From Myxococcota bacterium (GTDB taxonomy: Bacteria; Myxococcota_A; UBA796; CAJQPC01): 64,000 bases of DNA. Under the pieces are notes generated by a model, which saw nothing but the letters and a program-made list of their open reading frames with translations, searched no databases and had not been told where the DNA came from. Both the position numbers and the translations under genes were made by a program. Of this stretch, positions 3 to 49,948 are shown one piece after another. How positions within the stretch are numbered: position 1 is the first letter of the stretch; every line of letters starts with the position of its first letter. Where the stretch lies: NCBI GenBank assembly GCA_036012755.1, contig DASCPX010000129.1, positions 192,001-256,000 on the forward strand. The letters are read 5' to 3'.

Positions 3-1373
3 TCACATTCCCTGGCTGCGCGGAAGGTACAGGCTCCCCCGCGGATCCGTAGCGAAGGTCTCTGGAAGCTGGGCCACGCCGAGGACTGCCGCCGGTCCAT
101 CCGCCAGCGCGTTGATGCCGGGGAGCTCCGCGATCAGCACCTCGGTGTCCCATGCCACTGGGACCTGGCCGACGTGGAGCTCGGCGATGGTGATCGCGTA
201 GGCCGGAACAGGGCGCCCCTCCAGGCCGGCGAGGCTTCCGCTGTGGACGAGGCGCGGGTCGTCCGGGCGGATCCCGAGCGCCGCCGCCGCGGCCCTGTTG
301 AGCACGGTCACCTCCGCGCCGGTGTCCAGGAGCGCCGGGAAGTGGACCTGGCCGTCGCCGATCTGGACCAGCCACTGGCCGTCCCGGTTGATCGACAGAG
401 GCGTGGCCACCATGTCGGTCTCGAAGTCGTCGAAGGGGACGAGGCGGAGACCCTCTTCCGAGAAGACGGCTACCCCTCGACCGAGCACGTCCTGACCGAG
501 CAGGGAAAACGGCGAGTGCTCGATGATGGCGACGCCGCCGAGCGGAACTGGCTGAGATCGTTCGACGTCCACCTGGCGGAAGGCTGTGCTTCCTCCAGGT
601 GTCGAGGCCAGCTCGGTCAGACCGCCCGGTGGTCCGGATGGCAGCAGGGTCAGGGACGAGCCGGTGTCCACGTGCACCTCGAGCCAGTCGTCGCCTACCT
701 GGATGACGGACTGCATGTCGTTGAGCGGGAACTCGACCGTGTCGGTGAGGAGGACCTCGGCTGGCAGGCTCGGGGGCGTCGCCTCTGCGTCGCGGTCGAG
801 GAGCTCGGTCTCGAAGACCAGCGGGGGCGAGCCGGACAGCGTGCGCGAGGGCAGGCCCTGGTCCCAGGTCCCGATGACTGTGACGTGTGGGTCGAGCATG
901 GGATGACGCTCCTCTGCCCGGCTCAACAGACCCGTCTGCGGGTCGATCCACCAGTGCTCCTCGAGTCCCCAACGCCAGCGGATGCGCAGGTGCCACCCGG
1001 GGTCCTCCGCTCCGAGGTGGACGACCTCGTCGATGTGCTCGCGCCACGCGATCAGCTGGCTCGGGTCGGCGTTGAAGGCCAACTCCTCCAGGCGAGGTCC
1101 CCAGACGCGGCTCCACGTGGGGCGCTTCTCCCAGCCGACACCATCGACGAGCCCCCAGCCCATGCGCAGCCCGCTGAGCTCGAGCCAGGCTTCGTAGTCT
1201 CCGTCGACCCAGGTCTCGGTGAGGGTGCCCTGGAGGTCCTGGACGCGCACGGAGGAGCGCAGGCTCCTGGTCGTGCGGCTGTCGACCTGGGCGGCGTAGG
1301 CGTCGAGGAGAGCCTCTGCCGATGGCGGCTCGATGGGGACGACTGGGGGGCGGCAGGCAAGTAGCAGGATCAT
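3..1373 (-). CDS. Aspartyl protease (retropepsin-like, two domains), predicted lipoprotein
   Basis: Two DTG motifs (VHVDTGSS, LLDTGAEVTVL), each followed by an LG-type motif (LLGQD, VLGVA). The likely start is ATG 1373 (MILLLAC); an alternative ATG is at 1382. Confidence 0.8.
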   Translation of the reverse strand: MILLLACRPPVVPIEPPSAEALLDAYAAQVDSRTTRSLRSSVRVQDLQGTLTETWVDGDYEAWLELSGLRMGWGLVDGVGWEKRPTWSRVWGPRLEELAFNADPSQLIAWREHIDEVVHLGAEDPGWHLRIRWRWGLEEHWWIDPQTGLLSRAEERHPMLDPHVTVIGTWDQGLPSRTLSGSPPLVFETELLDRDAEATPPSLPAEVLLTDTVEFPLNDMQSVIQVGDDWLEVHVDTGSSLTLLPSGPPGGLTELASTPGGSTAFRQVDVERSQPVPLGGVAIIEHSPFSLLGQDVLGRGVAVFSEEGLRLVPFDDFETDMVATPLSINRDGQWLVQIGDGQVHFPALLDTGAEVTVLNRAAAAALGIRPDDPRLVHSGSLAGLEGRPVPAYAITIAELHVGQVPVAWDTEVLIAELPGINALADGPAAVLGVAQLPETFATDPRGSLYLPRSQGM

Positions 1374-1496
1374 GGTGCTCATCGTAGACAGCTGTCGTCA
1401 ACCGGCGACGTGGGGGCTGCGCAAGTGTTCGAGATCGCGTGTTGGACCACATGGCACGAGTCGTGAACCGTAGCTTCGCGAAGCCCTGGAGAAACC

Positions 1497-2234
1497 ATGA
1501 TCCTGCTCTCGTTCTTCCTCCTCTCAGACCCCCTCGTTTCGGCGGCTCACGCCGAGGATGTCGCCGCCTTCGAGTCCAAGGAGATGAACACCCTCTGGGT
1601 CCAGCGGGACTGGGGCGGACACACGGACGAGGCCATCGGGATCCTCGAGGCTGCGAAGGCCGCGAACCCCGACGACTACGAGATCCGCTGGCAGCTCGCC
1701 CGCTTCTACTACTGGAAGGCTGGTACGAAGACCGGCGCCAAGCAGGCGGAATTGGGCAAGAAGGCATGGGATGAAGCCGAGGTCGCGAAGGACCTGGAGC
1801 CCGGCTCGGTCGAGGGTTGGTACTGGGCCGCCGCCTCGATCGGCGCATACAGCCAGGGAGCCGGCATCATGAACGCCGTGAAGGAGGGGCTCGCCGACGA
1901 GTTCAAGGTCAACGCCAAGAAGGCGATCGCCATCGACGGCGGCCATGACCACGGGGGCCCCTACCGTGCCCTCGGGCGCTTCTACACGACCCTGCCCTGG
2001 CCGCTCCAGGACCTCGAGGAAGCCGAGAAGATGTCGGAGAAGGCCCTCGCCGCGGACGACGACTTCGCGATCAACCTCTACTACCTGGCCGATGTCTACA
2101 AGCAGGACGGCGACGAGACCAAGGCGCGCCAGTACGCCACGAAGGCCGCGGCGCAAGACCCGGCGTCCAGCGGAGATCCGCCATCGACCCGCAAGCATGT
2201 CAAGCTGGCCGAAGCCATGCTCGAGGAGTTGTAG
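1497..2234 (+). CDS. Secreted TPR-like helical repeat protein (TatT-like)
   Basis: GGAG RBS, signal peptide ending AAHA, and helical repeats (YEIRWQLARFYYW, GWYWAAASIG, GGPYRALGRFY, INLYYLADVY). Confidence 0.65.
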   Translation: MILLSFFLLSDPLVSAAHAEDVAAFESKEMNTLWVQRDWGGHTDEAIGILEAAKAANPDDYEIRWQLARFYYWKAGTKTGAKQAELGKKAWDEAEVAKDLEPGSVEGWYWAAASIGAYSQGAGIMNAVKEGLADEFKVNAKKAIAIDGGHDHGGPYRALGRFYTTLPWPLQDLEEAEKMSEKALAADDDFAINLYYLADVYKQDGDETKARQYATKAAAQDPASSGDPPSTRKHVKLAEAMLEEL

Positions 2235-3604: not shown

Positions 3605-4317
3605 TCCAGCGGGTCTCGCTCGGTGATCGCGCGGCGGTCATCGGCGACATCCACGGCTCGGCCGATCTGCTCCGGCGCTTGCTGGGGCAACTCGAGGGGC
3701 TGCCCATCGTCGTCGCCGGCGATCTCTGTGACCGGGGCTCCGACACGCGGGGCGTGCTCGATCAGCTCGTCGCTGTCGGTGCGATCGGAGTCCTGGGCAA
3801 CCACGACCTGTGGCTGCGTGACTGGGCAAACGGCCGCGGCTTCGACGACTTCGCGCTGCACCGGGCGATGGGTGGACGAGCGACGCTGGCGAGCTACGGC
3901 GTGGACCCCGAGAGCTCCGTCGCCCAGATCGAAGCGGCCTCCTGGCGCGTTCCGGAGTCCCACGGTCGATTCCTGGACGGCCTCCCCCTTGCCCTGTCGG
4001 TCGGTGTCGGCGGCGAGGACTTCTGGGTGGTGCACGCGGGGCTGCTGCGCCAGCTGGAGTTTCCTCCGGAGCCTCGCCGGCGCGTGGACTGGCTCGTCCG
4101 GACCCACGGGGAGCGAATGTGCTGGGGCAAGTGCCACCCTGTGCAGTGCGTCGAGGCCGACGTGCCGGTTGTGATGGGGCACGTGCCGCTGTCCGCCCCA
4201 GAGGACAACGGCCACTGCGTCGCGATCGACACCGGAGCGGGGACATGGGGAGAGGCGGGCTGCCTGACGGCCTTGATCCTGCCCGAGCGGCGCTTCCTCA
4301 GCGTGTCAGGGCTGTGA
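3580..4317 (+). CDS. Metallophosphoesterase (PPP/PrpA-like Ser/Thr phosphatase)
   Basis: GDIHG, GDLCDRG, GNHD, VHAG, GHVP and IDTG motifs. The start is uncertain (GTG 3580 or CTG 3601). Confidence 0.85.
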   Translation: MEALLAGLIQRVSLGDRAAVIGDIHGSADLLRRLLGQLEGLPIVVAGDLCDRGSDTRGVLDQLVAVGAIGVLGNHDLWLRDWANGRGFDDFALHRAMGGRATLASYGVDPESSVAQIEAASWRVPESHGRFLDGLPLALSVGVGGEDFWVVHAGLLRQLEFPPEPRRRVDWLVRTHGERMCWGKCHPVQCVEADVPVVMGHVPLSAPEDNGHCVAIDTGAGTWGEAGCLTALILPERRFLSVSGL

Positions 4318-5005
4318 GCGTGAAGAGTTCGTCGTCGAGGCCGGCGTCGAAAGCGACCTCGTTGACGGTCGCCTCCGTGGAGGTGCCCTTGTCGTTGTCG
4401 AGGACGTGGAGGGTGTGGGCGAGGTTGCGCGGCCCGACGTCGCGGTAGTCCGTCAGCGTCACCGTCCGGATCCTGACGTTGTCCTCGTCCGAGTACTCGA
4501 TCACCGAGGGGAGGTGGTCGTCCGGCCGGACCCACATGCGCACGTGGTGGTGCTCGTGCTGCTTGGGGTCGTTCGGGGTCAACAGCAGGGTCGTCATCTC
4601 GCCGTCGGTGCCCTCGACGATCGCGCTGTACTCCTCCGACCAGGACAGGCGCGAGAGGTCGTCGATGCTGAAGTCGGTGCCCATGAAGGCGTCGCTGCGC
4701 TGGTCGCCGACCACGCGCTTCGGTCGTCCGTAGGCGGGCAGGTAGACGTAGACCGTCTCGCCGTCGGGCACGAGCAAGCCGATGCCAGCGAGCCTCGCCG
4801 GCTCCGTGTAGCGAACGAGGCGCTTGTCGTCGCCCTTCTGCCAGATCTCGAGCGTGCGCTGGGCGCTCTCACCCTTGTCGTCGGTGACGACGACGTCGAG
4901 CACCAGGTGGGCGTCGTCTCCGGCGTTGTTGGCGGCGTCGACCTTTGCGAGCAGGGCGTCGCCAGCTTCGTCGGCGAGAGCGAGCGCGAGGAGCGTGTGG
5001 AGCAT
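4298..5005 (-). CDS. Outer membrane lipoprotein-sorting protein (LolA-like fold)
   Basis: Motifs KRLVRYTEPARLAGIGLL, YVYLPAYGRPKRV and FMGTDFSIDDL. Short signal MLHTLLALALA. Confidence 0.8.
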   Translation of the reverse strand: MLHTLLALALADEAGDALLAKVDAANNAGDDAHLVLDVVVTDDKGESAQRTLEIWQKGDDKRLVRYTEPARLAGIGLLVPDGETVYVYLPAYGRPKRVVGDQRSDAFMGTDFSIDDLSRLSWSEEYSAIVEGTDGEMTTLLLTPNDPKQHEHHHVRMWVRPDDHLPSVIEYSDEDNVRIRTVTLTDYRDVGPRNLAHTLHVLDNDKGTSTEATVNEVAFDAGLDDELFTLTALTR

Positions 5006-5052
5006 GGCGCCTGGATATCGCGCCCTGGTAGCCTTGCCGCGCGAGGGCACAG

Positions 5053-6018: not shown

Positions 6019-7881
6019 TCAGTAGAGGTAGATCTCCAGGTTCGTGCTGCCTTCTGAGCCGTCAGCGCTCCCCACGACGAAGACCCTGGAGTCCCCCACG
6101 CCGAGGTACTCGTAGGTCCAGGCGTCGTCTCCCCAGTCGTCGTTGCTGCAGCTCGTGATGGCGCCCCCGCACTCCTCCAGCGCGTAGAGGATCGTGTCTC
6201 CCTCCGAGCCGTTGGTGTGGAAGATCCACCAGCCGGGGGCGTTGGCGTTCCAGGTGAAGGTCTCGGCGTCGTGGAGCACGCCGCAGGTCCCCGTGATGCC
6301 CTCGCCGTTTCCGGCGCGTTCCCAGGAGGTCGAGACCCCTCCGCCGCCGAGGTCGACATCGGCACAGGAGGGCGGGCCCAGGATCTCGAGCTCCGAGCTC
6401 TCCACGAGCAGCGTCACCTCCTGGCTCTCTGCGAGGGTCGCCGAGACCGAGCCGGTCCCACAGGCCAGCTCCTCGCCGAGGCAGTCCCCGTCGAGCACCG
6501 CGACGGTCTCGCCGACGAAGACGTAGTCCCCATCGCTGGGAGCGGCCCAGCCGAGCAGGACCTCGTCTCCGGCCTCTCCGCAGCTGGCCTCGAGCCAGTC
6601 GTGCCACGCCTCGGGGAGCTCGACTTCACCGGTGCCCTCGACGTCTGTGTCGGGGCACTCGTTGCACTCGATCGTACCCGCGCAGTCGGAGTCGTCGCAG
6701 TCGGTGACGCCATCGCCGTCGTCGTCGAGGGTGTTGGTGCAGTCGCGCTCGAATCCCCACCAGTCCGTGCCGGAGAAGTCGATCGGATCGACACCGAGGA
6801 AGGCCCGCATCGTCGGCGCCACGTCCAGGTGTGAGGCGCCGTCGAGCTCGGTGGCGAGGAGCGAGGGGCCGGCCAACAACAGCGGCACCGCCTGGTAGTC
6901 CTCGCTCATGGTGCCGTGGGTGCCCCAGGCGTCCCCGCCGTGATCGGAGGTCATGACGATCAGCCACTCCTCGCTGGCGATCTCCGGCCGCTCCAGCAAG
7001 ACGTCCACGAGCTGGCCGAGGTCCTCGTCGAGGTCTTCGAGGGCAGCGACGTACTCGGGATTGTCGGCCGAGAAGCCGCCGGAGTGTCCGGCGGTGTCCA
7101 GCGCGTGCAGCTCGACGAGGTAGACCTGCGAGAGCCCTCCACGCAGTGCCCCGAGAGCCTCCTCGAGCACATCCTCGTCGGCGTCGACGGCGATGAGATC
7201 CGAGAACCCCACCCACTCTGCCCCAGCCCAGATCCGCTCGTCGAGGTCCTCGAAGGGGTCCATCGTCAGGGGGATGCCGTCGGTCCAGACGCCGTGGCTC
7301 TCTGTGCCGGTGAGCACGCTCGCCCAGCCCGGTCCGCAGGTCGTCAGGTCGGTGGTCTGGGTGGTAGCGGTCGCGATGACCCCCCAGGCCGCGAGCCGGT
7401 CGATGTTCGGTGTGTCCACCAGGGGCAGGACCTCTGCGTCGAGGCCGTCCGCGGCGACCAGCAGGACGTCTCGGGAGCTGGCCTCCTCCGGAGATCTCAG
7501 CATCTCGAGGCTGACATCGATCCGCGCAAGGACCTCTGCAGAGTCGCTGTCGTGGAGGGTGATGTGAGCTTCGTGCCGACCGCTCGCGGCGGCCCAGGGA
7601 TCCGCGGTGAGAGTCAGGACTCCGTCTTCGATCGAGGCCCCCAGCCAGGTCTCGGAGGACAGGGCGACGAAGGCATCGCAGGGCTCGGCGAGGACCTCGA
7701 GGTCCCGCTCCACCGAGGGTGTGTCCTCTCCCTGCCACCAGGACCAGAGGACCGGATCCGTGTCGATCGACAGACTTCCGGAGCGCTCGCAGGTGGCCGT
7801 GTCCTCGAGGATCACGGTCTCGGTGGCGCCCGGTGGCGTGATGTGCGTCTCTTCGACGACGCAGGCGAGGAGCCAGATCAT
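6019..7881 (-). CDS. Alkaline phosphatase / nucleotide pyrophosphatase superfamily lipoprotein with BACON-like N-terminus and Cys-rich C-terminus
   Basis: VLLVAADGL, TTCGPGWASVLTG, LDTAGH, TSDHGG and HLDVAPT motifs. Start MIWLLAC overlaps the upstream stop (ATGA) and has an AGGAGG RBS. Confidence 0.8.
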   Translation of the reverse strand: MIWLLACVVEETHITPPGATETVILEDTATCERSGSLSIDTDPVLWSWWQGEDTPSVERDLEVLAEPCDAFVALSSETWLGASIEDGVLTLTADPWAAASGRHEAHITLHDSDSAEVLARIDVSLEMLRSPEEASSRDVLLVAADGLDAEVLPLVDTPNIDRLAAWGVIATATTQTTDLTTCGPGWASVLTGTESHGVWTDGIPLTMDPFEDLDERIWAGAEWVGFSDLIAVDADEDVLEEALGALRGGLSQVYLVELHALDTAGHSGGFSADNPEYVAALEDLDEDLGQLVDVLLERPEIASEEWLIVMTSDHGGDAWGTHGTMSEDYQAVPLLLAGPSLLATELDGASHLDVAPTMRAFLGVDPIDFSGTDWWGFERDCTNTLDDDGDGVTDCDDSDCAGTIECNECPDTDVEGTGEVELPEAWHDWLEASCGEAGDEVLLGWAAPSDGDYVFVGETVAVLDGDCLGEELACGTGSVSATLAESQEVTLLVESSELEILGPPSCADVDLGGGGVSTSWERAGNGEGITGTCGVLHDAETFTWNANAPGWWIFHTNGSEGDTILYALEECGGAITSCSNDDWGDDAWTYEYLGVGDSRVFVVGSADGSEGSTNLEIYLY

Positions 7882-9434
7882 CGGCGCCTCCTGATCACCA
7901 GCAACGCCAACAACCAGGGAGCCAGCGCCACGCCGCCACCGCAGCCGCAGCGCGGTTCGGGTTCGAAGGGTGGTGGTGTGGCGGCCGGCGGCGTGCTGTC
8001 TGCCACCGGATCTGAGTCCACCACGGATGTGTCGATGGGTGGGTCGGACTCCTGGGGTCCTGTGTCGATGGGGCCCTCTGCTTCGATGCAGGTCAGGGTC
8101 CAGGTGTGGGTGTCCGTCAGCGCTCCGTCGGTGTCCAGTCGCACGATGGCGGTCGGATCCGACACGGACAGGATGATCTCGTGGCTGACGAGGTCCTCGC
8201 AGGTCACACTCAGCTCCGAGTCGCTCCCGGCGTCCGCCCCGTCGAGGGTCCAGGACAGCACCATCGAGTCGTCGTCCGGACCCAACACAGTTGCTGTGAA
8301 GACCTGCTCCTCGCCGATCTCCAAGGTAGCCTCGTCCTCTGGGATCGTGTCGACCACCAGCTCCGAGAGGTGCTCGTACATCACGACGAGTCCGTGCTCT
8401 TTGCACACCGGACAGAAGTCCTTGTAGAGCGTGTACATCAGGCAGTCCCCGTTCGTGGGACTGTGCCAGTCGGTGTAGGAGCAGGGGGTGAAGGCGCCGA
8501 TCCCCTCGACGTCCAGCCACTGGCTCCAGGTGGAGCCATCTGACTCCGAGCTGCAGTTCGCGCCGGCCCCAGAGCCCCCGTAGGCGTAGCCGTAGCTGTA
8601 CTCGTCCCACAGCTCCATGAAGTGGTGGCCCAGCTCGTGTACCTGCACCTCGTCGGAGTAGGTCCCCGTGTAGGTGGTGCAGTAGGTCGGGCTGCCCATG
8701 CCGCCGTAGGTGCTGTCGTTGACGAGCACCACGGTCATGTCAGCTGCCGGCAGGGAGCTGTCGATGGCCGCGACGACGGCGTCATCGTCGCAACAGACCA
8801 GGCGATCGGTGCCCGAACAGCCGTAGTAGCAGCCGTACGCCGTGTCCTTTTCGATGTCCTGGCCTGCGTCGTAGTGAGAGGCCCCGGACTCGGCGGAGGC
8901 GGCGTCCACCCGCCAGACGCTGACGAGGCCGCTGTAGCTGGCGTAGGGCTCGCGAGTCAGCAGGTCCGTCGAGAGTCGGTCCACGTCGGAGCGCCAGAGC
9001 TCGAGCTCGTCGATGGTGTAGCCGTCGCCGAGGTAGAGGATGTCGATGCGCTCGTCCAGCGGGCCGTCGACGTCGACCGCCACGACGGGATCTGAGGGCG
9101 GGGCGACGCTCAGGCCCACCCGGGCCGAACCCAGCCGGAGGCTGCGGGCGCCGTCAGGCCACTCGATGGCGACCCGGGCGTATGCGGCGTCCAGTTCGAC
9201 GTGGGCGCCTCCTCCTTCCGGGTGGATGATGCCTGCGCGCCGAACATCCATGGGCACCGCGGCGGTGGCGAGGATGCTGCCGTCGGCGGCCAGGATCTCC
9301 AGGTCCCCGGCGGTACGGGACACGACCTTGCCAGGGGCCGCGACGACGCGGACGAGCGCCACACCGGTGTCGTCCACGCGGAGGGTCGCGATCGCGCTGT
9401 CGGCCTGCGCGAGGCCCATCCAGATCAGAAGCAT
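7878..9434 (-). CDS. M64 (IgA peptidase-like) metallopeptidase with MYXO-CTERM-like tail
   Basis: IDILYLGDGYT, HELGH...LWDEY, CLM and FCPVC motifs. C-terminus CGCGGGVALAPWLLALLVIRRRR. Confidence 0.85.
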   Translation of the reverse strand: MLLIWMGLAQADSAIATLRVDDTGVALVRVVAAPGKVVSRTAGDLEILAADGSILATAAVPMDVRRAGIIHPEGGGAHVELDAAYARVAIEWPDGARSLRLGSARVGLSVAPPSDPVVAVDVDGPLDERIDILYLGDGYTIDELELWRSDVDRLSTDLLTREPYASYSGLVSVWRVDAASAESGASHYDAGQDIEKDTAYGCYYGCSGTDRLVCCDDDAVVAAIDSSLPAADMTVVLVNDSTYGGMGSPTYCTTYTGTYSDEVQVHELGHHFMELWDEYSYGYAYGGSGAGANCSSESDGSTWSQWLDVEGIGAFTPCSYTDWHSPTNGDCLMYTLYKDFCPVCKEHGLVVMYEHLSELVVDTIPEDEATLEIGEEQVFTATVLGPDDDSMVLSWTLDGADAGSDSELSVTCEDLVSHEIILSVSDPTAIVRLDTDGALTDTHTWTLTCIEAEGPIDTGPQESDPPIDTSVVDSDPVADSTPPAATPPPFEPEPRCGCGGGVALAPWLLALLVIRRRR

Positions 9435-9514: not shown

Positions 9515-10219
9515 ATGTTCATGATGCTCATCGCCTGCACCGGTCGCGAACCCCAGGACGGTCAGGGGCGTCCGCCGCTCGGGGGTGACGACAGCGCCGA
9601 CACCGGCCCCGATGTGCCTCTGGACGGCCAGGGTGAGATCACGGGGGACTGTGGGTTCCTCGCCCACCAGCAGTGGACGAGCAGCGAGAGCTGGCTCTTC
9701 CGCAACAGCATCGACCTCGGTGACGCTGGCCTCGACGTCGAGGATCTCTCGGAGGGGGGCGCGAAGGTCTACACAGACGGGAACCTCGGAGGATCCTCGC
9801 TGTTGTCCGAGGTGCTGGCCTTCGAGCTGCTCTACCGCTGTGAGCTCGCGGACCTCGTCAAGACGGAGGCCGAGATCGAGTACGCCACAGAGGGCAAGAA
9901 GACCGACCTGCTGGTTCAGATCGACAGCCGCAGCGTCGGCGTGAGCGTCACCCGGGCATACCACTGGCCTCCAGAGGACCTCTTCACAGTCGAGGAGGCC
10001 GACGCGCTCTTGACCGACAAGCTCGCCGACGCCAGCGAGGCCGACGACAACGTCGCCGCGGCGGACGCCTGGGAGCGGACGATCCTCCACGTCATCGCCT
10101 ACGACTCACAGTACGCGGACATGGTCGAAGAGGCCTACGGGGCTCTCGGTGCCGGTGTCACAGAGGACCACATCCTCGTCGTCTCGGTGACCGAGGGGGA
10201 CGACGAAGAGGTCTATTGA
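9515..10219 (+). CDS. Lipoprotein with AAC4-like domain (possible PD-(D/E)xK-like fold)
   Basis: GGAGG RBS and MFMMLIAC. The motif string NLGGSSLLSEVLAFELL...KTEAEIEY...TD...GVSVTRA resembles my recollection of the AAC4 family. Confidence 0.6.
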   Translation: MFMMLIACTGREPQDGQGRPPLGGDDSADTGPDVPLDGQGEITGDCGFLAHQQWTSSESWLFRNSIDLGDAGLDVEDLSEGGAKVYTDGNLGGSSLLSEVLAFELLYRCELADLVKTEAEIEYATEGKKTDLLVQIDSRSVGVSVTRAYHWPPEDLFTVEEADALLTDKLADASEADDNVAAADAWERTILHVIAYDSQYADMVEEAYGALGAGVTEDHILVVSVTEGDDEEVY

Positions 10220-10860: not shown

Positions 10861-12387
10861 CTACGGGCTCGCGACGCGATCCGGGTAGGGAACGAGCTCG
10901 TCCATGCGCTGGATCTTGTGGAAGTCGACGACCTTGAGGATGTCGGCGCGAGAGAGCTGGTCCGCAGAGTCGTAGCCACAGGATGCCAGGACCATCGCGA
11001 ACTCCTTGAGCACCGCGTGCTGGTAGTTCGAAGCCCGTGGGCCCTGGACCCTGGGCACCAGCCCCCGCTGCAGCCACGAGCTGTGCGTGGCGATTCCGCT
11101 CGGACAGAAGTTCGTGTTGCAGTGGAGCGCCTGGATGCAACCGATCGACAGCATGAACCCTCGGGCGCTGCAGGCCCAGTCGGCGCCGGCCGCCAGCGCG
11201 ATGGCCAGGGCGCCGCCAGTGAAGACCTTGCCTGACGCGGCGATCTTGATCCGCTCGCGAAGTCCGTATTCGAGCAGCTTGTTCTCGGTCATCATGACCG
11301 CATCCAGCATCGGGTACCCGAGGATGTTCGTGTGTGCGAGTGGCGCCGCTCCGGTGCCGCCCTCTGCCCCGTCGACGGCGATGTAGTCCGGGCCGACGCC
11401 CACATCTACGATCGCCTGGAAGATCTGGTCGAGGAACCTGGGGTCACCCAGGCAGTACTTGATGCCTACGGGCTTCCGGCTGAGCTTCTGGACACGCTCC
11501 ACGAAGCGCAACAGACCCTCGGCGTCTTCCCACTCGGAGTGGCGCGGCGGGGAGATGACGTCGCGACCTTGCTCGACGTTTCGGATCTTCGCGATCTCGG
11601 GGGTGATCTTCTCCTTCGGCAGGATCCCGCCCTTGCCTGGCTTGGCACCCTGACTGAGCTTGATCTCGATCATTCGCACCTGGGCCAGGGCGGCTTTCTT
11701 CGCGAAGGTCTCCTCGTCGAAGCTGCCGTCGGCGTTCCGGGCGCCGAACTTGGCGGTGCCCAGCTGCCAGACGAGGTCGCCGCCGGGCTCGCGGTGGTAG
11801 GGGCTGATGCCGCCTTCACCGGTGTTGTGGTAGTAGCCGCCTTCCTTGGCGCCCCTGTTCAGCGAGAGGATGGCCCGCTTTCCGAGGCTTCCGAAGCTCA
11901 TCGCCGAGGTGTTGAACAGGGCGGCATCGTAGGGGTGCTCGCAGTGCGGGTTGTGCTCTCCGACGTGTGTGCGTCCCGGCTCCTCGTGCTTCAGCTTCGG
12001 ATAGGAACTGTGTGCCATGAGGATCGTGCCGGGCGAATCCAGATCGAGCTGGGTGCCAAATGGCACGGTGGCGTCCTCGTTCAGCGCGCTGGCCTCGATC
12101 CACTTGCGCACGTAGCGCGGCACGGGGCGCTCCTCGCGGTCGTTGGAGATGAGGTACTGTCGCAGGGGCGGCCCGACTGACGACAGGGCATGGCGGCCCA
12201 TGGCCATCAGCGGGAAGTTGCGCTTGATGCTGTTCTTGGACTGTAGGAAGTCGCGCAGCGCCATGGCCAGGAAGATGAAGACCAGGAGCAGGAACAGGGT
12301 GCCGCCCGGGTGCTCTACCACCCAGAAGATGGGCGTGAAGATGACTTCGATGAGTGTGTTCAAGAGGGTCTCCTCATTGGGAGACAT
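10861..12387 (-). CDS. FMN-binding glutamate synthase family protein (stand-alone) with N-terminal TM segment
   Basis: SAMSFGSL, NTGEGG, EIKLSQGAKPGKGGILP and DGAEGGTGAAP motifs, plus the Fe-S motif CIQALHCNTNFCPSG. Start MSPNEE at 12387. Confidence 0.9.
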   Translation of the reverse strand: MSPNEETLLNTLIEVIFTPIFWVVEHPGGTLFLLLVFIFLAMALRDFLQSKNSIKRNFPLMAMGRHALSSVGPPLRQYLISNDREERPVPRYVRKWIEASALNEDATVPFGTQLDLDSPGTILMAHSSYPKLKHEEPGRTHVGEHNPHCEHPYDAALFNTSAMSFGSLGKRAILSLNRGAKEGGYYHNTGEGGISPYHREPGGDLVWQLGTAKFGARNADGSFDEETFAKKAALAQVRMIEIKLSQGAKPGKGGILPKEKITPEIAKIRNVEQGRDVISPPRHSEWEDAEGLLRFVERVQKLSRKPVGIKYCLGDPRFLDQIFQAIVDVGVGPDYIAVDGAEGGTGAAPLAHTNILGYPMLDAVMMTENKLLEYGLRERIKIAASGKVFTGGALAIALAAGADWACSARGFMLSIGCIQALHCNTNFCPSGIATHSSWLQRGLVPRVQGPRASNYQHAVLKEFAMVLASCGYDSADQLSRADILKVVDFHKIQRMDELVPYPDRVASP

Positions 12388-13303
12388 CGTAGCGGTAGAG
12401 CGCCTCCTCCTGTCCAATCCCGTAGAACTCGAAACTGAGCGTCTCGGATGTGGCGCGAACGACGCTGTAGCCGAAGCTGCTCGAGATGAAGTGCTGCCCC
12501 TCCGAGCCGACCTTGGCGCAGCGCCCCTTGAGGGCACCGGGGTCGGTGCACAGGGGGCGGCTCTTGCTGCCGGAGCCGGCGATGAGCTGGTCGAAGGTGG
12601 GGCCGTCGATGTGCTCGAGGTGGTGGTCGTGTCCGGCCAGGGCGAGGTCCACTCCACAGCGCTCGAAGATCGGCTCGACGGCGTCCTGGAGCGGGATGAG
12701 CTCTGTCGGGTGGAGACCGTGCAGTCCGCTGGAGTGCAGGGGATGGTGGGCGAAGGCGACCTTCCAGCCCTCTGCCGCGCAGAACTCCTCCTCCATCTCC
12801 TTCAGCATCGCGGCGCTGCCGGCTGTGTCGGTCCAGCGTCTCAAGAGCTGGCTGTCCCAGCCATAGAGCGTGAACCACTCGGGCAGGCCCGGCACGCGGT
12901 AGTGGAGGTCCGGCATGCGCCAGCGCTCGGAGCGGTTCGTGTAGTCGATCTGCGCCTGGGCCGAGCGGAGCCAGTCGTGGTTGCCCATGACCACCCAGGT
13001 CTCGAGCGCTCCGTGGCTGGCATAGGGCTTCTCGTAGAGCGCCACGAACTTGCGCGAGATGGAGCTCTCCGCCCCGGTCTCGTAGATGTTGTCGCCGACC
13101 ATCACGGCGAGGTCGCAGCCCAGGGCCGCGCAGGTCCTGGCGGAGTGCTCGGCGACCTGCCGCTGGGGAGGGCCCTTCTTGCCTGTGTCCCCGAGCACGA
13201 GCAGCACGATCTCTTCGTCGGACTGTCGCTCGGTGAACGGAACGGTTGCCAAGGGGGTGGGATCCTGGAGATCGAAGCCCGCGCAAGCGATGAGGTGCCA
13301 CAT
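12374..13303 (-). CDS. Metallophosphoesterase, purple/tartrate-resistant acid phosphatase-like lipoprotein
   Basis: GDTG, GDNIY, GNHD, HHP and GHDH motifs. Start MWHLIAC. Confidence 0.85.
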   Translation of the reverse strand: MWHLIACAGFDLQDPTPLATVPFTERQSDEEIVLLVLGDTGKKGPPQRQVAEHSARTCAALGCDLAVMVGDNIYETGAESSISRKFVALYEKPYASHGALETWVVMGNHDWLRSAQAQIDYTNRSERWRMPDLHYRVPGLPEWFTLYGWDSQLLRRWTDTAGSAAMLKEMEEEFCAAEGWKVAFAHHPLHSSGLHGLHPTELIPLQDAVEPIFERCGVDLALAGHDHHLEHIDGPTFDQLIAGSGSKSRPLCTDPGALKGRCAKVGSEGQHFISSSFGYSVVRATSETLSFEFYGIGQEEALYRYDVSQ

Positions 13304-14746: not shown

Positions 14747-16536
<1,790 letters not shown>

Positions 16537-16540
<4 letters not shown>

Positions 16541-17064
16541 TCGATCCAGGTCCCTCGGCCCTGCCAGGCGTTGTCGCAGGGCAGGGGCCACACGATGAGG
16601 TCACAGGCGTCCGGGGAGAGCTCCTCGTAGGCGATGAAGGTCGCCTCGATCTTGTAGTCCATCGTCTTGTCGTCGAGCAGGGTGCCGTCGAGGAGCGCGG
16701 TCACCTGGCTGACGCAGGTGCCGAAGGGGATCTCCAGCGAGCCAGTGAGCGCCACGGTGGTGCCGTCGCTGGTTCCGCTCCAAGGCATCTCCTGCTCGGA
16801 GCCGGGGTCGCTGATCATGTCGATGCAGCTGCCGTCGGTGGTCCACTCGGTCAGCGTGTCCTCGCCCACGTGGATGTGGATTCCCTGGCCCTCGTCGTTC
16901 TCGCAGTCGTTGACCAGGGCCTCCGCGATGTTCAGCGCCCAGGTGCCGTTGGCGAGGTAGCCGTCCTCGACCCCCGTGCAGTCGGGGGACACGCTGTCGT
17001 CGGTGGCCCCGCTGTCCTTCGGGTCGGGGTTTCCCTTCGTGCAAGCCAACAGGAGCCAGGTCAT
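16537..17064 (-). CDS. Hypothetical lipoprotein
   Basis: MTWLLLAC start, acidic beta-rich body, and its stop overlaps the next start. Confidence 0.7.
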
Positions 17065-17128
17065 GGGGGCAGCGTACCCTGACATCGGCTTCACGTTCGG
17101 CGCGGATGGGCCCTTTACATTCACGCCC

Positions 17129-18138: not shown

Positions 18139-19086
18139 ATGCTGATGCTGCTCCTGCTGTCCGCGCTCGCGTGGGCGGTGCCGACGAAGACGCTCGAGGC
18201 GGGGATCGATCGAAGGGTCATCCTCGTCGACATGGACGGCCGCCAGATCGACTGCAGCCTCGTCGCCGTCGAGGACACCCGGCTCGTCGTTCGCTTGGAT
18301 GACGGCTCTCTCGCGGAGGTGGAGCGCTCAGCGGTGGTGAACCTCGTCGACCTCGGCCCGGCGCCTCCTCCTCCTGTCGAGGAGGAGCCAGAGGACGACT
18401 TCGGCGAGGACCCGCTGGATGAGGAGACGCTCGACGACTTCGACGTCGAAGAGGTCCTCGAGGAGATCCTCGAGGAGGGAGTCGTCGAGGACCCGGTCGT
18501 CGAGGACCCGGTCGTCGAGGAGGCCGCCATCGAGGAGGCCATCACCGAGGAGGCCCCGGTCCTCGAGGAGCGGGCGGAGCTGCCGGAGGATGACCTCGCG
18601 CTGCCGGAGAGTGATGGCGTCTCGACCGAAGGCGATGTCGCGGAGAGCGAGGCCTGGGAGGAGCCCTCCGACCCCGTCGCCACCGACCCCGTCGCCACGG
18701 ACGCCGTGGCGGACGTCCAGCCCGAGCCTGCCGTCGAGCCCGAGCGTGACCCGGAGGCCGACTCCGAGCTCTACTACCGGGGGCGCGCGGATGGGGCAGC
18801 GGCGGCAAAGGGAGCGGTGACCGCGATGCCCCAGGGCTTGGGCTTCCTCGGCGGCTGTGTCGGTAGCTGCGCCGGGTGCACGGCGGCCACCCTGACCTTC
18901 GCCTTGATGGAGCCGACGGTCCCGACTGGAGACTGGCAGGATCGAGAGGGCCTGTACCAGCAGGGCTACGTCCAGGCCTATCGCGACACCTACCAGCGCG
19001 AGGCGGCCCGGCGAGCCTTCGCGGGCGGTGCCCTCGGCGCTGCGACGACCACCGTGGTGGCCATCGCACTCATCGCCCAGCTCTGA
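18139..19086 (+). CDS. Hypothetical exported protein with acidic low-complexity linker and C-terminal hydrophobic segments
   Basis: Short signal peptide, small beta domain, E/D/P-rich linker with a VVEDP repeat, and two hydrophobic segments. Confidence 0.7.
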   Translation: MLMLLLLSALAWAVPTKTLEAGIDRRVILVDMDGRQIDCSLVAVEDTRLVVRLDDGSLAEVERSAVVNLVDLGPAPPPPVEEEPEDDFGEDPLDEETLDDFDVEEVLEEILEEGVVEDPVVEDPVVEEAAIEEAITEEAPVLEERAELPEDDLALPESDGVSTEGDVAESEAWEEPSDPVATDPVATDAVADVQPEPAVEPERDPEADSELYYRGRADGAAAAKGAVTAMPQGLGFLGGCVGSCAGCTAATLTFALMEPTVPTGDWQDREGLYQQGYVQAYRDTYQREAARRAFAGGALGAATTTVVAIALIAQL

Positions 19087-32482: not shown

Positions 32483-32498
32483 CCGGAGAGCATAGCGC

Positions 32499-34034
32499 TC
32501 AGGGCGTATCGGAGACCTGGTCGTAGTCGTCGTCGCCCCAGCACTTCAGCTCTCCTCCGGTCGTGATGGCGCAGCTGTGGTCGTCACCCGAGCAGACCGA
32601 GGTGAAGCTGCCAGAGGGAGCGTCGGAGACCTGGTCGTAGTCGTCGTCCCCCCAGCAATCCAGCGTGCCGGTTCCGGAGACCGCGCAGCTGTGGTCGTCG
32701 CCGGCTGCGATGGACACCCAGCCCTTGGAGCTCGGCGCGCCGTCGATGCCAGCGCCGATGCCGAAGCACTCGACGGCGCCGTCGGTCTTCAGGGCGCAGG
32801 CGTGCAGGCCGCCGCCGACCGAGATCGCCTGGTAGGTCCCGGAGGGTGGCTCCGGGTCGCTCGTGCCCCAGCAGACCAGCTCCTGGTCGTCGTCGATGGC
32901 GCAGGCGAAGTAGAAGCCCACGCCCACCTTCTCGAAGCTCCCCGAGGGCTCGTAGGTGATGCCGTATTCGCTGACACCCCAGCACTTCAGATCGCCGTCG
33001 TCGTCGAGAACGCAGCCGTTGGCGTAGGTGCCGACGGCCACCTGCGCGTAGGTCCCCGAGGGGGCGCTCTCCATGCCGCCGACCGAGGCGCCCCAGCAAT
33101 CCAGGGCGTCGGAGCTGTCGAGCACGCAGTCGAAGTAGCCCCCTGACGCCAGCTGGTTCACCGGGTCCGACGGGGGGCTGCCGATGCCGTCGTAGCCCCA
33201 GCAGTGGACCTTGCCCGAGGACTTCAGCGCGCAGTTGTGATCGTCGTCGCCGCAGGACACGGCGCGCCAGCCGCAGCCGTCCCCGTAGGGGAACAGCTCG
33301 TCGTCGTCGTCGTCGCAGTCGGTGCCGGCCTCGACGCCGCTGCGCGGGCGGTCCGAGCCGTAGCCGTCTCCATCGGCGTCGGTCATGCAAGCCGTGGCGC
33401 TGTCCTCTTCCGCGGCCCCTGGCGCGGTCCGGCGGTCCCCATCGTCGCAGTCCCCGTCGCAGGAGCTGATCCCGTCGCCGTCCTCGTCGAGCTGTCCCAG
33501 ATCCGGGTCCTCGTCGTCGCAGTCGTCGTCGGTCGTCGTGCCGTCGCAGTCGGCGTCCTCTGCCAGCGCCGTCGACTCGGGGTCGTAGTCGTCGCAGTCC
33601 TCGGCCGTCAGGAGCCCATCGCAGTCCATGTCGGCGGCCTGGTCTCCGAGCTCGGGGTCGTAGTCGTCACAGTCCGCGTCCGCGAGTACGCCGTCGCAGT
33701 CCTGGTCGTTCTCGGGATCGGTCACGTCGGGATCGTCGTCGTCGCAGTCGCCTTCGCAGGTGGTGAGGCCGTCTGCGTCCAGGTCGTCGTGGTTGAGCGA
33801 GGCGTCTTCGTCGTCGCAGTCGTCGCCGCCGCTCCAGTCCGAGGCCCAGCCGTCCCCGTCTCCGTCGAAGCCGTCGACGCCGTCGCAGTTCTGGTCGATG
33901 GCGTCGCCCACCACGTCGGTGGCCTCTGGGTTGATCGCCCCGTTGTCGTCGTTGCAGTCGCCCTGCCGGATCGTGAAGCCGTCGGCATCGGCGTCGAGGG
34001 GTGTCCCGCCCCAGCAGGCCAAGAGGAGTAGCAT
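32499..34034 (-). CDS. MopE-like repeat lipoprotein with RCC1-like repeats
   Basis: MLLLLAC start and DCDD repeats. C-terminal repeats of the form G..HSCA...G.L.CWG. Confidence 0.85.
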   Translation of the reverse strand: MLLLLACWGGTPLDADADGFTIRQGDCNDDNGAINPEATDVVGDAIDQNCDGVDGFDGDGDGWASDWSGGDDCDDEDASLNHDDLDADGLTTCEGDCDDDDPDVTDPENDQDCDGVLADADCDDYDPELGDQAADMDCDGLLTAEDCDDYDPESTALAEDADCDGTTTDDDCDDEDPDLGQLDEDGDGISSCDGDCDDGDRRTAPGAAEEDSATACMTDADGDGYGSDRPRSGVEAGTDCDDDDDELFPYGDGCGWRAVSCGDDDHNCALKSSGKVHCWGYDGIGSPPSDPVNQLASGGYFDCVLDSSDALDCWGASVGGMESAPSGTYAQVAVGTYANGCVLDDDGDLKCWGVSEYGITYEPSGSFEKVGVGFYFACAIDDDQELVCWGTSDPEPPSGTYQAISVGGGLHACALKTDGAVECFGIGAGIDGAPSSKGWVSIAAGDDHSCAVSGTGTLDCWGDDDYDQVSDAPSGSFTSVCSGDDHSCAITTGGELKCWGDDDYDQVSDTP

Positions 34035-34143
34035 CGCCTGCGATTGTATCTGCGGCGGGGCTGCGGCTCGCCTGAGCCGAACCCAACGTTGACGTCCTCG
34101 AACACGACATTAAGTGGCCCCCCCATTCCACGGAGGTACCGCG

Positions 34144-46674: not shown

Positions 46675-46965
46675 ATGTCCTTGTTCCTCGTCCTCGCCTG
46701 CACCGCCGATGTCGACCCCGAGCAGCTCGACGCTATCCTCGCGCTAGAAGGTGACCCCGACGCCGGAGACTCCCTCTTCGTCGAGGACTGCGAGGGATGC
46801 CACGGACCGGGTGGGGACGGCAGCGCCAGCGCGGTCGCGCTCGAAGGGGGAGACTCCGAGGGCACGGCGGATGCCCTCCTCGCGGGACCTGGGGTGATGC
46901 CGAGCTTCGCCGACGAGTCCGACCAGGACCTCGCCGACCTCGTCGCCTACGTGGACGAGCTCTGA
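46675..46965 (+). CDS. Monohaem cytochrome c lipoprotein
   Basis: CEGCH haem motif, distal GVMPSF Met ligand, MSLFLVLAC start and GGAGG RBS. Confidence 0.85.
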   Translation: MSLFLVLACTADVDPEQLDAILALEGDPDAGDSLFVEDCEGCHGPGGDGSASAVALEGGDSEGTADALLAGPGVMPSFADESDQDLADLVAYVDEL

Positions 46966-48271: not shown

Positions 48272-48310
48272 GGACGTGCGGTGCTGAGCTTGGCCCCCGC
48301 GGCTGGGAGA

Positions 48311-49948
48311 TCACCAGCCCCAGGTCAGCAACTGGGCGTCCATCGTCCCGACCAACGGGTCGCCGTCTTCGGTCCCGGCCTCCTCGAACTCCACGTCGCC
48401 GAGGACATAGGACAACAGCTCGAAGTCCTCCATCGTCTCTGTCTCGTAGTAGAAGAGGGCAGCGACGGACTGGTCGAGGTCGACCTCCACGACCCCTGGG
48501 GCGAAGAGCTCGGGTTCCGCCACGAAATAGACCAGCAGGATCTCGGTGGGTGAGATCCAGGACACGAGGTAGAGCACCGGCTCCCCCTCCTCGGACCAGC
48601 CGGCCACGGCCCCGGTCTCTTCGGGCGCGAAGGTCTCGTCCCCCAGGTCCACCACGAGCTCCGCGTTGTCTGTGGAGAAGGGGTCGATCATCTCGATGCT
48701 TCCCCACCACGTGTCGAAGCTGGCGTCGATGCCGCCGACCAGCTGCATGCAGAAGCTGTCGCGCTGGCCGTAGGGCCACTCCTCGCCCAGGGCGGGCTCC
48801 AGGTCGCTGCGGCGACCCTCCACCACCCCCCTGACCTGCTCGATGGACTCGAAGACGGTCTCCCGTTCCTCGGAGTCGAGCTCCGGCTCGAGCAGCTCCT
48901 CCCAGGTGTCGATGCGCCCGAGCAGGACACTCTCGTCCCAGGGGCCAGCTAGCTGCGCGTTCATGGCGTCCAGGTAGATCTGCCGGCCCTCCGGGTGGTC
49001 GTAGAGCCGGTTCGCGAGCTGACCGAAGGCGTAGACAGAGGGCAAGCCCTCCTCTGTCTGGGCGAAGGCCTCGTCGATTCCCCAGGGGATGAAGCGGAAG
49101 CGCCCGCCGTCACCTGGGGCGGCGTAGATGTAGGTGTTGTTCGTGTTCCATGCGTAGCCGTCGACGTGGTTGATCAGGACCTCTGCCGCCCAGTGGTCGG
49201 CGAAGGCCTCGACGTCGACGACATCGTCGAGGGCATCGAGCAGCTCGTCATCGTCGACCTGCAGCGCACTGACCAGGGCGTCGATGTCGGACCAGTCGTC
49301 CTCGGCTTCGTTGTTCTTCTTCTCGATGGTCCCGGTCCACTCGGGTCGGAAGTCGCTGAGCGTCAGCTCGTAGAGGTTGCCGCTGGCGTCTCCGAAGTTC
49401 CGCTCGAGGATCGGGTCCTTGATCGGCTCGACGTTCACGTAGAGGCCGAGGTCATCACCGTTGACGCTGACTGTGGCGAAGCCGCATCGACTGGCGGGAA
49501 GGCCGGCGTCGTCGAAGTAGCCGTAGCCCAGGCACTGGCGCACCAGGGAGGGGTCCGAGTGGGAGTTGTTGAGCGTCAGGCGCTCGACGCCGTGGAAGTC
49601 CTGGTCCTCGAACTCGACGAGGTCCAGCTTCAGGGCCGGCTTGTCCTCGCTCAGGCTTCCCAGGAAGCCCTTCTTCCGCACGTCCACCCGCTCGAAGCGC
49701 TGACCGTCCAGGGTGACCGAGCCCTCGAACCATGTGAACGGACTCCCATAGGACTCCTCCTGGCAGTCCTCGCCGCCCAGGATGTCGAAGAAGTCACGGC
49801 TCTGGAGCCGCAGCTCGTCCCAGTCGTCCGGGTCCAGCTCGATCTCCACCTCGAGGAGGTGGTCGTAGACCAGCTCGGGCTGGGGCTCCACCGGGTCCAG
49901 GGCGGGGACGGTGGGCTTGCAGGCGCTCAGTGCGAGGAGGAGTGACAT
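48311..49948 (-). CDS. CotH kinase family lipoprotein
   Basis: VRKKG, LTLNN, GLYVNVE, DGYAWNTNN and IPWGID motifs. Start MSLLLALSAC. Confidence 0.88.
   Translation of the reverse strand: MSLLLALSACKPTVPALDPVEPQPELVYDHLLEVEIELDPDDWDELRLQSRDFFDILGGEDCQEESYGSPFTWFEGSVTLDGQRFERVDVRKKGFLGSLSEDKPALKLDLVEFEDQDFHGVERLTLNNSHSDPSLVRQCLGYGYFDDAGLPASRCGFATVSVNGDDLGLYVNVEPIKDPILERNFGDASGNLYELTLSDFRPEWTGTIEKKNNEAEDDWSDIDALVSALQVDDDELLDALDDVVDVEAFADHWAAEVLINHVDGYAWNTNNTYIYAAPGDGGRFRFIPWGIDEAFAQTEEGLPSVYAFGQLANRLYDHPEGRQIYLDAMNAQLAGPWDESVLLGRIDTWEELLEPELDSEERETVFESIEQVRGVVEGRRSDLEPALGEEWPYGQRDSFCMQLVGGIDASFDTWWGSIEMIDPFSTDNAELVVDLGDETFAPEETGAVAGWSEEGEPVLYLVSWISPTEILLVYFVAEPELFAPGVVEVDLDQSVAALFYYETETMEDFELLSYVLGDVEFEEAGTEDGDPLVGTMDAQLLTWGW

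Follow-up and report, generated by a model that had tools for sequence, protein, structure and literature searches.

How short can a bacterial export signal be? The question is raised by a 64-kb stretch of DNA (the window) from an uncultured bacterium resembling myxobacteria, in which a preliminary description had pointed out eleven lipoprotein-like leaders with the Cys at residue 7–10 and no Lys or Arg ahead of it. All eleven N-termini proved to be exact translations from an ATG, and the Cys position and lack of charge hold for every one of them. The genes, named below by the coordinate of that ATG, are as follows:

3..1373, minus strand: lipoprotein-like aspartyl protease, MILLLA-C (Cys 7); TAnnnT box at 1381–1386, 7 nt upstream
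6019..7881, minus strand: phosphodiesterase/sulfatase-family protein, 620 aa, MIWLLA-C (Cys 7); SD 5–7 nt upstream
9515..10219, plus strand: 234-aa protein without Pfam family, MFMMLIA-C (Cys 8); SD 6–7 nt upstream
12374..13303, minus strand: metallophosphoesterase, MWHLIA-C (Cys 7); in-frame stop two codons before the ATG
14747..16540, minus strand: MopE-repeat and C-type lectin protein, MTWLLLTLA-C (Cys 10); ATGA overlap with the stop of the 17064 gene
16537..17064, minus strand: 175-aa protein without Pfam family, MTWLLLA-C (Cys 8); TAnnnT box at 17071–17076; start ambiguous, with ATG and GTG upstream
19499..20314, plus strand: 271-aa protein without Pfam family, MFALILA-C (Cys 8); no canonical start in the 10 codons that separate it from the upstream stop
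30002..32482, minus strand: MopE-repeat protein, MLLVLLCLA-C (Cys 10); TAnnnT box at 32489–32494
32499..34034, minus strand: MopE and RCC1-repeat protein, MLLLLA-C (Cys 7); TAnnnT box at 34043–34048
46675..46965, plus strand: monoheme cytochrome c, MSLFLVLA-C (Cys 9); SD 4–5 nt upstream
48311..49948, minus strand: CotH-family kinase, MSLLLALSA-C (Cys 10); SD 5 nt upstream

Pfam families were found in eight of the 11 cargos (cytochrome c, CotH, MopE repeats with C-type lectin, MopE, RCC1 with MopE, metallophosphoesterase, phosphodiesterase and aspartyl protease), including the cytochrome c, CotH and lectin types recognised earlier; none was found for 9515, 17064 and 19499. Eight of the 11 starts are preceded by a signal, either SD (4) or a TAnnnT box 6–8 nt upstream (4), and the starts at 16540 and 13303 overlap the stop of a called upstream gene. 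At 13303, 19499, 32482, 34034 and 49948 the ATG is indeed the first ATG, GTG or TTG after a stop, as had been claimed; since the stop at 13303 lies only two codons away, a longer signal is impossible there. Alternative starts upstream of 1373 (ATG, 3 codons) and 46675 (GTG, 8 codons) give signals that are still uncharged. At 17064, initiation at a GTG 10 codons upstream would yield a signal of ordinary appearance (Lys 2, Cys 18), although a -10 box lies 6 nt ahead of the short start.

Three short leaders of non-lipoproteins had also been listed, MLHTLLALALA, MLLIWMGLAQA and MWLLTGLAFA. All three exist, but the last (28854, plus strand) heads a YidD-family protein, which is not of the usual exported type. 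Further uncharged signals in the window are:

4298..5005, minus strand: LolA-like protein, 11-residue SPase I-type signal
7878..9434, minus strand: peptidase M64 protein, 11-residue SPase I-type signal; alternative ATG 5 codons upstream
18139..19086, plus strand: 315-aa protein, short SPase I-type signal; TAnnnT box 6 nt upstream
28854..29207, plus strand: YidD-family protein, 10-residue signal-like start, export uncertain
55285..57612, plus strand: MopE and FG-GAP lipoprotein, intermediate-length signal (Cys 15); start position calculated from the called length
57632..59923, plus strand: MopE and FG-GAP lipoprotein, intermediate-length signal (Cys 14)

Normal basic signals are present in the window as well, e.g., in the minus-strand gene ending at 26780, and the miniature trait is therefore dominant rather than universal.

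The genome-wide distribution of first-Cys position and n-region charge, proposed in the preliminary description as a check, confirmed the miniature class throughout the genome. Among 5,714 called genes, 703 carry an uncharged lipoprotein signal with Cys at 6–12 (mode 8), while 95 carry a basic one; uncharged signals with Cys at 12 or earlier make up 703 of the 833 lipoprotein signals. Signal lengths are distributed bimodally: uncharged signals peak at Cys 8, basic ones at 16–19. A further 209 genes, that of BamA included, begin with a short SPase I-type signal that is likewise uncharged. Roughly one gene in six (approximately 900 proteins, 16% of genes) thus starts with an uncharged export tag of 6–12 residues, half as long as in textbooks. 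The SPase I-type search, with A-x-A built into its rule, returned 265 uncharged signals (median 11 residues) versus 70 with Lys/Arg (median 18.5). Chance does not explain the motif, which stands after 730 of 5,714 starts and after only 41 of 28,235 internal Met residues; at the DNA level, the short-signal pattern gave 42 matches and its reversed control none.

The lipobox is well formed. A, G or S occupies position -1 in 713 of 763 cases (93%) versus 28.9% before internal Cys, Leu dominates at -2 and -3, and LLAC is the commonest form (204/703). Without any charge filter, Lys/Arg was found in 16 of 682 signals with Cys at 6–12, and in 12 of 293 with Cys at 9–12 compared with 50 of 61 with Cys at 15–24. 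The summed hydrophobicity is about 20, versus 35 in normal signals of the same genome, and the early mature region is acidic (mean net charge -1.4). Residues +2/+3 and cargo types are similar in the miniature and normal lipoprotein classes. RR-type lipoprotein signals form a separate set; the miniature class lacks Arg and hence the twin arginine of Tat signal peptides. Pal retains a normal signal in this genome (G000) and its relatives. Ribosomal-like codon use (top decile) was found for 16 of 79 normal-signal lipoproteins versus 59 of 692 miniature ones (p 0.002); this expression effect is small, and for SPase I-type signals it is not significant (p 0.12).

Are the starts themselves real? The dicodon score switches from about -1 to +0.5 at the short ATG, and an SD or -10 box precedes 333 of 513 short starts versus 53 of 469 internal ATGs. 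It is very improbable that the class is an annotation artefact in which true starts, at canonical or non-canonical codons, lie upstream and give normal signals. Such an alternative start is available in 86 of 514 genes, 17064 among them. On the other hand, 248 of 514 genes have no canonical start upstream, and 235 have none even when CTG, ATN or ACG is counted. In 96 of 514 an in-frame stop is too near for Cys at 15 or later, which excludes for these genes the upstream starts that the preliminary description had named among the findings that would refute its reading. Moreover, SD and -10 motifs are most frequent at the distance expected for the short start, and there is no coding signal upstream of it. 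These statistics indicate that the miniature starts are genuine.

Acceptance of the miniature signals for export is strongly supported by the cargo, because they are found on proteins that are essential or must be exported: BamA, LolA, a DegP-like protein and 14 CxxCH lipoproteins, in a genome that also contains a ccm operon. A-x-A, itself part of the search rule, stands at the BamA, LolA, DegP-like and CcmH-like starts. From these sequences we infer that the miniature-signal proteins are exported, lipidated and cleaved. Lgt, LspA, Lnt, LolA, SecA and SRP are all encoded, with five Lgt, two LspA, two LolA and three SPase I-family genes; SecA, SecY, Ffh and FtsY have one gene each and look ordinary as a whole, the LspA catalytic motifs are intact, and GRxGC was found in the four Lgt genes inspected (of five). 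The idea of a variant export or lipidation route is supported as regards acceptance of the signals but not as regards a separate route, given ordinary single-copy Sec/SRP, unremarkable Lgt and LspA numbers and the coexistence of normal signals (Pal, Tat lipoproteins).

Several candidate causes were rejected. Copy numbers are alike inside and outside the order (Lgt 3–7, LspA 1–3 in 30 genomes); the single LspA column separating order from outgroup is a Trp/Phe exchange; Ffh occurs in 29 of 30 genomes and FtsY is present, which speaks against loss of SRP; and two def genes with intact motifs, together with fmt, speak against a neutral N-terminus left by deformylase loss. BamD was unusable as a lipoprotein test case (27 of 30 orthologs without lipobox). 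SecA was compared with E. coli, and Ffh with E. coli and G072; the differences seen are not taken as specific to the lineage.

The preliminary description had suggested inspecting SecA, SecY, SRP, Lgt and LspA for lineage-specific changes. The only ones found are in SecY TM5 (Ile187 to Ala/Ser; Phe192 to Thr/Ala/Ser/Val), while LspA motifs and Lgt/LspA numbers gave no such signal; this points to a loosened standard route. Residue 187 is Ala or Ser in 21 of 21 order members with Ile in 9 of 9 outgroup rows. Across the phylum, 19 of 19 genomes of the order have Ala/Ser there, as does 1 of the 104 genomes outside it. It is a non-conservative pore-ring change, a feature shared with prlA-type SecY; I82, I86, I191, I278, I408, F67 and G69 are essentially unchanged. 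According to the portion of PMC2171872 available, I187 belongs to the SecY isoleucine ring and is absent from the prlA sites named there; pore-ring substitutions lower the hydrophobicity threshold, as stated in the accessible part of PMC3164448. Among 40 unrelated genomes with a SecY match, the only three with Ser187 are the three with 25–38 short-signal matches. A smaller residue at 187 may thus help miniature tags work. It is not sufficient, because in the cyanobacterial phylum 60 of 61 genomes have Ala (39) or Gly (21) there with 0–2 short-signal matches. Ser/Thr187 genomes outside the order have short signals in 1/6, 0/2 and 0/0 cases. The order member G072 has Ala187 and yet 0 short signals among 8 lipoproteins (in G072 and G167, both of lower GC, genes were called with self-trained models and not the G000 model). 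Position 187 may also be a passenger: SecY has eight columns specific to the order, this one among them, and the change tags one branch only.

SecY Ala240 and Ala376 occur in all seven high-trait genomes and are missing from 10 of 11 low-trait ones, other clade pairs sharing 0–2 columns by chance. In a blind test Ala240 did not hold up (Gly in G301, G302 and G303) and is rejected. Ala376 matched two of two blind high-trait genomes, but three of the eight outgroup genomes other than E. coli have it too; its link to the trait is a weak lead. S282A, seen in three high-trait genomes and one low-trait genome and missing in family f6, is inconsistent.

Miniature signals are restricted to this order and unevenly spread within it, with 9–90 short-signal matches in 11 of 44 members and none in another 11. 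In the CotH family the lipobox and Cys are kept, while the Cys position ranges from 7 to 35 among homologs; the CotH tree has 9 normal/miniature changes, at least 7 of them forced.

Based on the above results, we suggest as the probable reading that these are genuine signals stripped of their basic n-region and of half the h-region, served by the ordinary Sec–Lgt–LspA–Lnt–Lol (or Sec–SPase I) pathway with a threshold relaxed in this order. As the sequence statistics indicate, translation would begin at the Met of the hydrophobic run, on mRNA that is SD-led, translationally coupled or leaderless. The 5–11 Leu-rich residues would then open the SecYEG lateral gate, with the acidic early mature region setting orientation in place of the N-terminal positive charge. 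A small residue at SecY 187 and a polar one at 192 might, as a tentative and somewhat doubtful step, lower the gating barrier like laboratory prlA alleles, being permissive and not sufficient. Lgt would lipidate the LxAC Cys and LspA would cut, both needing little beyond the lipobox, after which Lnt and LolA would pass the product onward. LspA acts on a peptide with 5 residues ahead of the lipidated Cys, as given in the available text of PMC6952399. A helix of 6–9 residues cannot span the bilayer, and the geometry at Lgt and LspA speaks against this reading. The n-regions were presumably lost gene by gene and repeatedly, through start-codon shift into the h-region, and preferentially kept in Tat substrates and more highly expressed genes such as Pal. 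A bolder version appears possible but doubtful: a natural prl-like translocon, its SecY ring shrunk at Ile187, would have licensed a second, miniature signal class (6–8 uncharged residues, about 900 proteins including BamA), with independent takeover in at least two clades.

Compared with the canonical Sec/SPase II type (E. coli Lpp), the miniature signals share the hydrophobic run, lipobox, invariant Cys, polar tether and complete Lgt/LspA/Lnt/Lol set; they differ in having no basic n-region and only 5–11 residues before the Cys, short of the average of 16–26 residues for lipoprotein signals reported in the available part of PMC8689077. The SPase I-type ones resemble canonical signals in their hydrophobic core ending in A-x-A and their periplasmic and outer-membrane cargo (BamA, LolA, DegP-like), whereas they are uncharged, with a median of 11, and lack the tripartite n-h-c plan with its basic n-region. 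Prepilin (class III) leaders are also very short; however, they are charged, their cleavage takes place at the cytoplasmic face, and the mature protein retains the hydrophobic stretch, whereas here the run starts at Met and ends at a lipobox or A-x-A. The SecY 187 change resembles prlA and sec61 prl alleles in replacing a bulky pore-ring residue with a small or polar one, next to the prlA site I191, in association with defective-looking signals. Unlike those, it is natural and fixed in the order, lies outside the prlA sites listed in the accessible portion of PMC2171872, and is shared with cyanobacteria without the trait; a prl-like phenotype is putative.

It is unlikely that any Sec, Lgt and LspA accepts a Leu-rich 7-residue signal and that the lineage merely drifted to this minimum through start-codon shifts and leaderless promoters, with the SecY change as a passenger. 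Export in E. coli is impaired by removal of basic residues or shortening of the h-region. Universal acceptance would also lead one to expect short signals widely, whereas none of 257 genomes outside the order has more than 4 matches and the high-trait members inside it form two separate clades. Nevertheless, drift would agree with the small SecY 187 in cyanobacteria and several order members without the trait, and with G240, a relative outside the order whose signals are already short but charged (Cys 12–18, Lys/Arg in 8/8). The -10 boxes directly upstream, enriched in short signals (161/703 versus 4/81), provide a mutational route to them, and LspA in vitro needs the lipobox peptide alone, as far as the available text of PMC6952399 goes.

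Distinctly unlikely is a dedicated component, either a targeting factor or one of the five Lgt or two LspA paralogs, that serves the miniature class so that the two classes are sorted differently. The bimodal lengths and the multiple Lgt, LspA, LolA and SPase I-family genes would suit it, but paralog numbers are equal outside the order, +2/+3 residues and cargo are alike, and orthologs change signal class repeatedly. Furthermore, SPase I- and SPase II-type signals are shortened together, which points to a cause upstream of the processing enzymes. Quite improbable, too, is export with the leader left uncleaved (or unlipidated) as a shallow hydrophobic anchor, with or without diacylglyceryl on the Cys. 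BamA and LolA homologs are normally processed, A/G/S at -1 and A-x-A ends are what the two peptidases require, and the Cys is kept across the CotH family; in its favour, the leader is too short for the transmembrane helix assumed in LspA models, as described in PMC6952399.

The PROSITE rule demands Lys/Arg and a Cys at 15 or later, and lipoprotein predictors based on such rules would miss most of this lineage's envelope proteome. Textbooks require of a bacterial signal peptide both a basic n-region and an h-region that spans the membrane; several hundred natural proteins, essential envelope ones included, appear to manage without both. Such a large set of natural examples lends itself to asking how little a signal may contain, by what means Lgt and LspA get to a Cys only 7 residues in, and whether fixing a pore-ring change buys tolerance at the expense of fidelity. 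If the translocon is indeed prl-like, one or two SecY substitutions would be enough for a laboratory bacterium to read the miniature code.

The genome carrying the window is 6.73 Mb in size, with a GC content of 68% and a completeness of 95.95%; named homologs carry the labels Myxococcota, Deltaproteobacteria or Proteobacteria bacterium. All 11 lipoprotein-like N-termini listed in the preliminary description were found at their coordinates. The extracytoplasmic cargo ascribed to them was borne out by Pfam families of such type for eight; the other three had no Pfam family. Five of these genes had been described as lacking an upstream start, and in each of them no other canonical start lies between the preceding stop and the ATG. 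In gene 17064 (named by its start coordinate), a GTG further upstream would yield a normal signal, yet a -10 box lies 6 nt ahead of the short start. This minus-strand gene forms a divergent pair, spaced by 64 nt, with a plus-strand gene at about 17129, whose product has a TAAHC motif of trypsin type and likewise starts with a short uncharged signal. A YidD-family protein (membrane insertion efficiency factor; 28854-29207, plus strand), located in a stretch of small genes with secreted-looking products (27216-29950), has a signal-like start of 10 residues; YidD is cytoplasmic as a rule. Positions 39999-46600 (plus strand) hold large kinase-like genes, two in tandem, the first being of kinase-AAA-TPR type, and a phosphatase-like gene adjoins on the opposite strand.

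Two gene sets were used for the whole genome. In the first (own calls, dicodon model, 5,726 genes), 539 genes began at ATG with an uncharged run that leads into a lipobox, and in 514 of them Cys stood at position 12 or earlier. In the second (uniform start model, GTG/TTG also permitted, 5,714 genes), the distribution of first-Cys position and charge, proposed earlier as a check, agreed with the claim: there were 833 lipoprotein-like starts, 703 of them short and uncharged and 95 with Lys/Arg, although this model may favour short starts because its scoring gives credit for an SD, a -10 box and coding score. The result was also tested without start-model help or imposed features, by counting start contexts, -1 residues and charges. 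Under the uniform model, Cys position peaked at 8 in the uncharged class and at 16-19 in the basic class. SPase I-type signals showed a parallel pattern, with a median of 11 residues in the uncharged ones (n = 265; 209 once early-Cys starts are excluded) and 18.5 in those with Lys/Arg (n = 70). Together, short lipoprotein and SPase I-type signals account for about 900 genes (16%).

The objection that the true starts lie upstream can be weighed on the 514 short-signal genes. An alternative normal-looking start does exist in 86, and in 96 the upstream stop is too close for Cys to sit at position 15, whatever the start codon. No in-frame ATG/GTG/TTG is present upstream in 248, and 235 have no start giving Cys at 15-35, even counting CTG, ATN and ACG. 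The context also favours the short starts: a TAnnnT hexamer is located 4-9 nt ahead of 98/513 (peak of 48 at 6 nt) versus 4/469 internal ATGs, and an SD 4-11 nt ahead of 241/513 versus 49/469. Overlap with the stop of the upstream gene occurs at -4 for 54 short starts and at -1 for 38. The coding score is about -1 upstream of the ATG and about +0.5 from there on. The short-signal motif was present after 730 of the 5,714 starts, compared with 41 of 28,235 internal Met. The TAnnnT boxes directly before short starts suggest leaderless transcripts. Genome-wide, such a box is found 5-8 nt upstream of 669/5,714 called starts, with enrichment in miniature-signal genes, which suggests that leaderless transcription is common in this genome.

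The residue at -1 is Ala/Gly/Ser in 713/763 signals, compared with 28.9% ahead of internal Cys, when the lipobox is not imposed. With no charge filter, Lys/Arg is present in 16/682 signals with Cys at 6-12 versus 50/61 with Cys at 15-24. The early mature region has a similar mean net charge after short (-1.4) and normal (-1.6) signals. CxxCH is carried by 14 short lipoproteins, and the genome encodes a ccm operon; Ccm attaches heme c outside the cytoplasm. Uncharged signals of 11-18 residues were found in BamA, a DegP homolog, both LolA genes and BamD. BamD (G000:C149:39926; loci L098-L127), a lipoprotein in model bacteria, lacks the lipobox and has an A-x-A signal instead in 27/30 genomes of the class. 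Normal signals are retained by Pal (here and in relatives) and by twin-arginine lipoproteins. Lipoproteins with normal signals favour ribosomal-like codon use (p 0.003; 16/79 in the top decile versus 59/692), and 4/81 of them have a -10 box versus 161/703 short ones; for SPase I-type signals, the codon-use difference between normal and short was not significant. At the level of predicted genes, these data demonstrate that the reading frames begin at the hydrophobic run, that a true lipobox or A-x-A closes this run, and that the cargo must be exported.

Across 301 genomes of the phylum, we counted the pattern Met, five hydrophobic residues, Ala, Cys, with the reversed pattern as a control (0-2 matches). 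There were 42 matches in the genome of the window, 9-90 in 11 of 44 members of its order and zero in another 11. Outside the order, counts were 0-2 in 14 genomes placed elsewhere in the class and 0-4 in 243 others. In 200-kb samples with self-trained gene models, short uncharged signals made up 27/37, 14/18, 11/26 and 4/11 of all lipoproteins in genomes G202, G297, G147 and G267, and 4/20, 2/8, 1/14 and 0/8 in G050, G167, G142 and G072. In 400 kb from other orders the fraction was 3/21, with start evidence in 0/3. The high-trait genomes form two separate clades in the SecY tree. In G240, a genome of the phylum outside the class, lipoprotein signals are short yet always charged (Cys at 12-18), a possible intermediate state. 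Among the best 120 of 1,077 matches to the CotH protein of the window, the lipobox is conserved and Cys stands anywhere from 7 to 35, the starts being putative database calls, a few of them truncated. On a quick tree of 63 CotH sequences, which left out those without a recognisable lipobox and most distant matches, short and normal states require nine changes, at least seven being forced by well-supported branches.

The genome encodes SecA, SecY, Ffh, FtsY, SecDF, YajC, trigger factor, Lnt and fmt, as well as three SPase I-family, five Lgt, two LspA, two LolA and two def genes. An operon lspA-lspA-lgt-lgt is located at G000:C59:99967-102591, with the other three lgt genes elsewhere and similar numbers class-wide. 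One SPase I-family paralog (G000:C228:11573-12124), seemingly without catalytic Ser and Lys, is possibly inactive. A single SecA gene was found in each of 21 order members searched; a second SecA-like gene occurs in G117, G207, G287 and G018, outside the order. Lineage-specific changes in the machinery, which the preliminary description proposed to look for, were found in SecY; Lgt and LspA numbers do not differ outside the order, and the LspA motifs are intact.

Alignment with E. coli SecY revealed eight order-specific columns, including I187, which is Ala (12) or Ser (9) in 21/21 order sequences and Ile in 9/9 outgroup ones; F192 is replaced by Thr/Ala/Ser/Val in 21/21. A motif survey of 151 phylum genomes (123 matched, tallied by hand) gave Ala/Ser at 187 in 19/19 order members, and Ile 82, Met 12, Val 5, Thr 4 and Ser 1 in the other 104. 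Of 48 genomes reached via Lgt loci, 40 matched, with Ser in only three and Ala in none; these three are the ones with 25-38 short-signal matches, and they are not independent evidence, as they probably belong to the same order. A causal role of position 187 is weakened by three observations: it is Ala/Gly in 60/61 genomes of the phylum to which a Vampirovibrionales record (G340) belongs, which we take to be Cyanobacteriota, where short-signal matches are 0-2; the trait is absent from some order members with Ala187; and the change falls on a single branch. Position 187 would be permissive at most.

Passages of the literature describe signals as 16-26 residues long on average and positively charged at the N-terminus (PMC8689077). 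The LspA signal, about twenty residues long, is assumed to be a helix, although LspA acts on a peptide with five residues ahead of the lipidated Cys (PMC6952399). SignalP 6.0 labels presuppose an n-region of at least 2 residues and draw on PROSITE (PMC9287161). I187 belongs to the isoleucine ring, the named prlA sites being G69, I191, I278, S282 and I408 (PMC2171872); the ring comprises six Ile (PMC11470409). Changes of the prl type affect the pore ring, gate and plug, and polar or smaller residues lower the hydrophobicity threshold (PMC3164448, PMC3518225). Predicted secretomes of Myxococcota are very large, short signals not being mentioned in the accessible parts of that work (PMC11495043), and minimum signal length is not addressed in those of PMC9360617. 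In the literature searched, mostly non-subscription, we found no description of the SecY I187 Ala/Ser change of the order or, signal-length surveys in supplements aside, of genome-wide miniature uncharged signals.

We suggest the following pathway for the miniature-signal proteins. They would be exported by Sec, with membrane orientation set by the acidic start of the mature protein, and would be lipidated and then cleaved. A loosened SecY pore ring could lower the acceptance threshold. Shallow insertion of the 6-9 residue leader in the outer leaflet following lateral-gate release might, speculatively, present Cys to Lgt/LspA. Judged from genome comparison, the miniature-signal trait is real, far above chance and confined to the lineage, and the predicted signals behave like Sec/SPase II (and SPase I) signals while failing two defining features.
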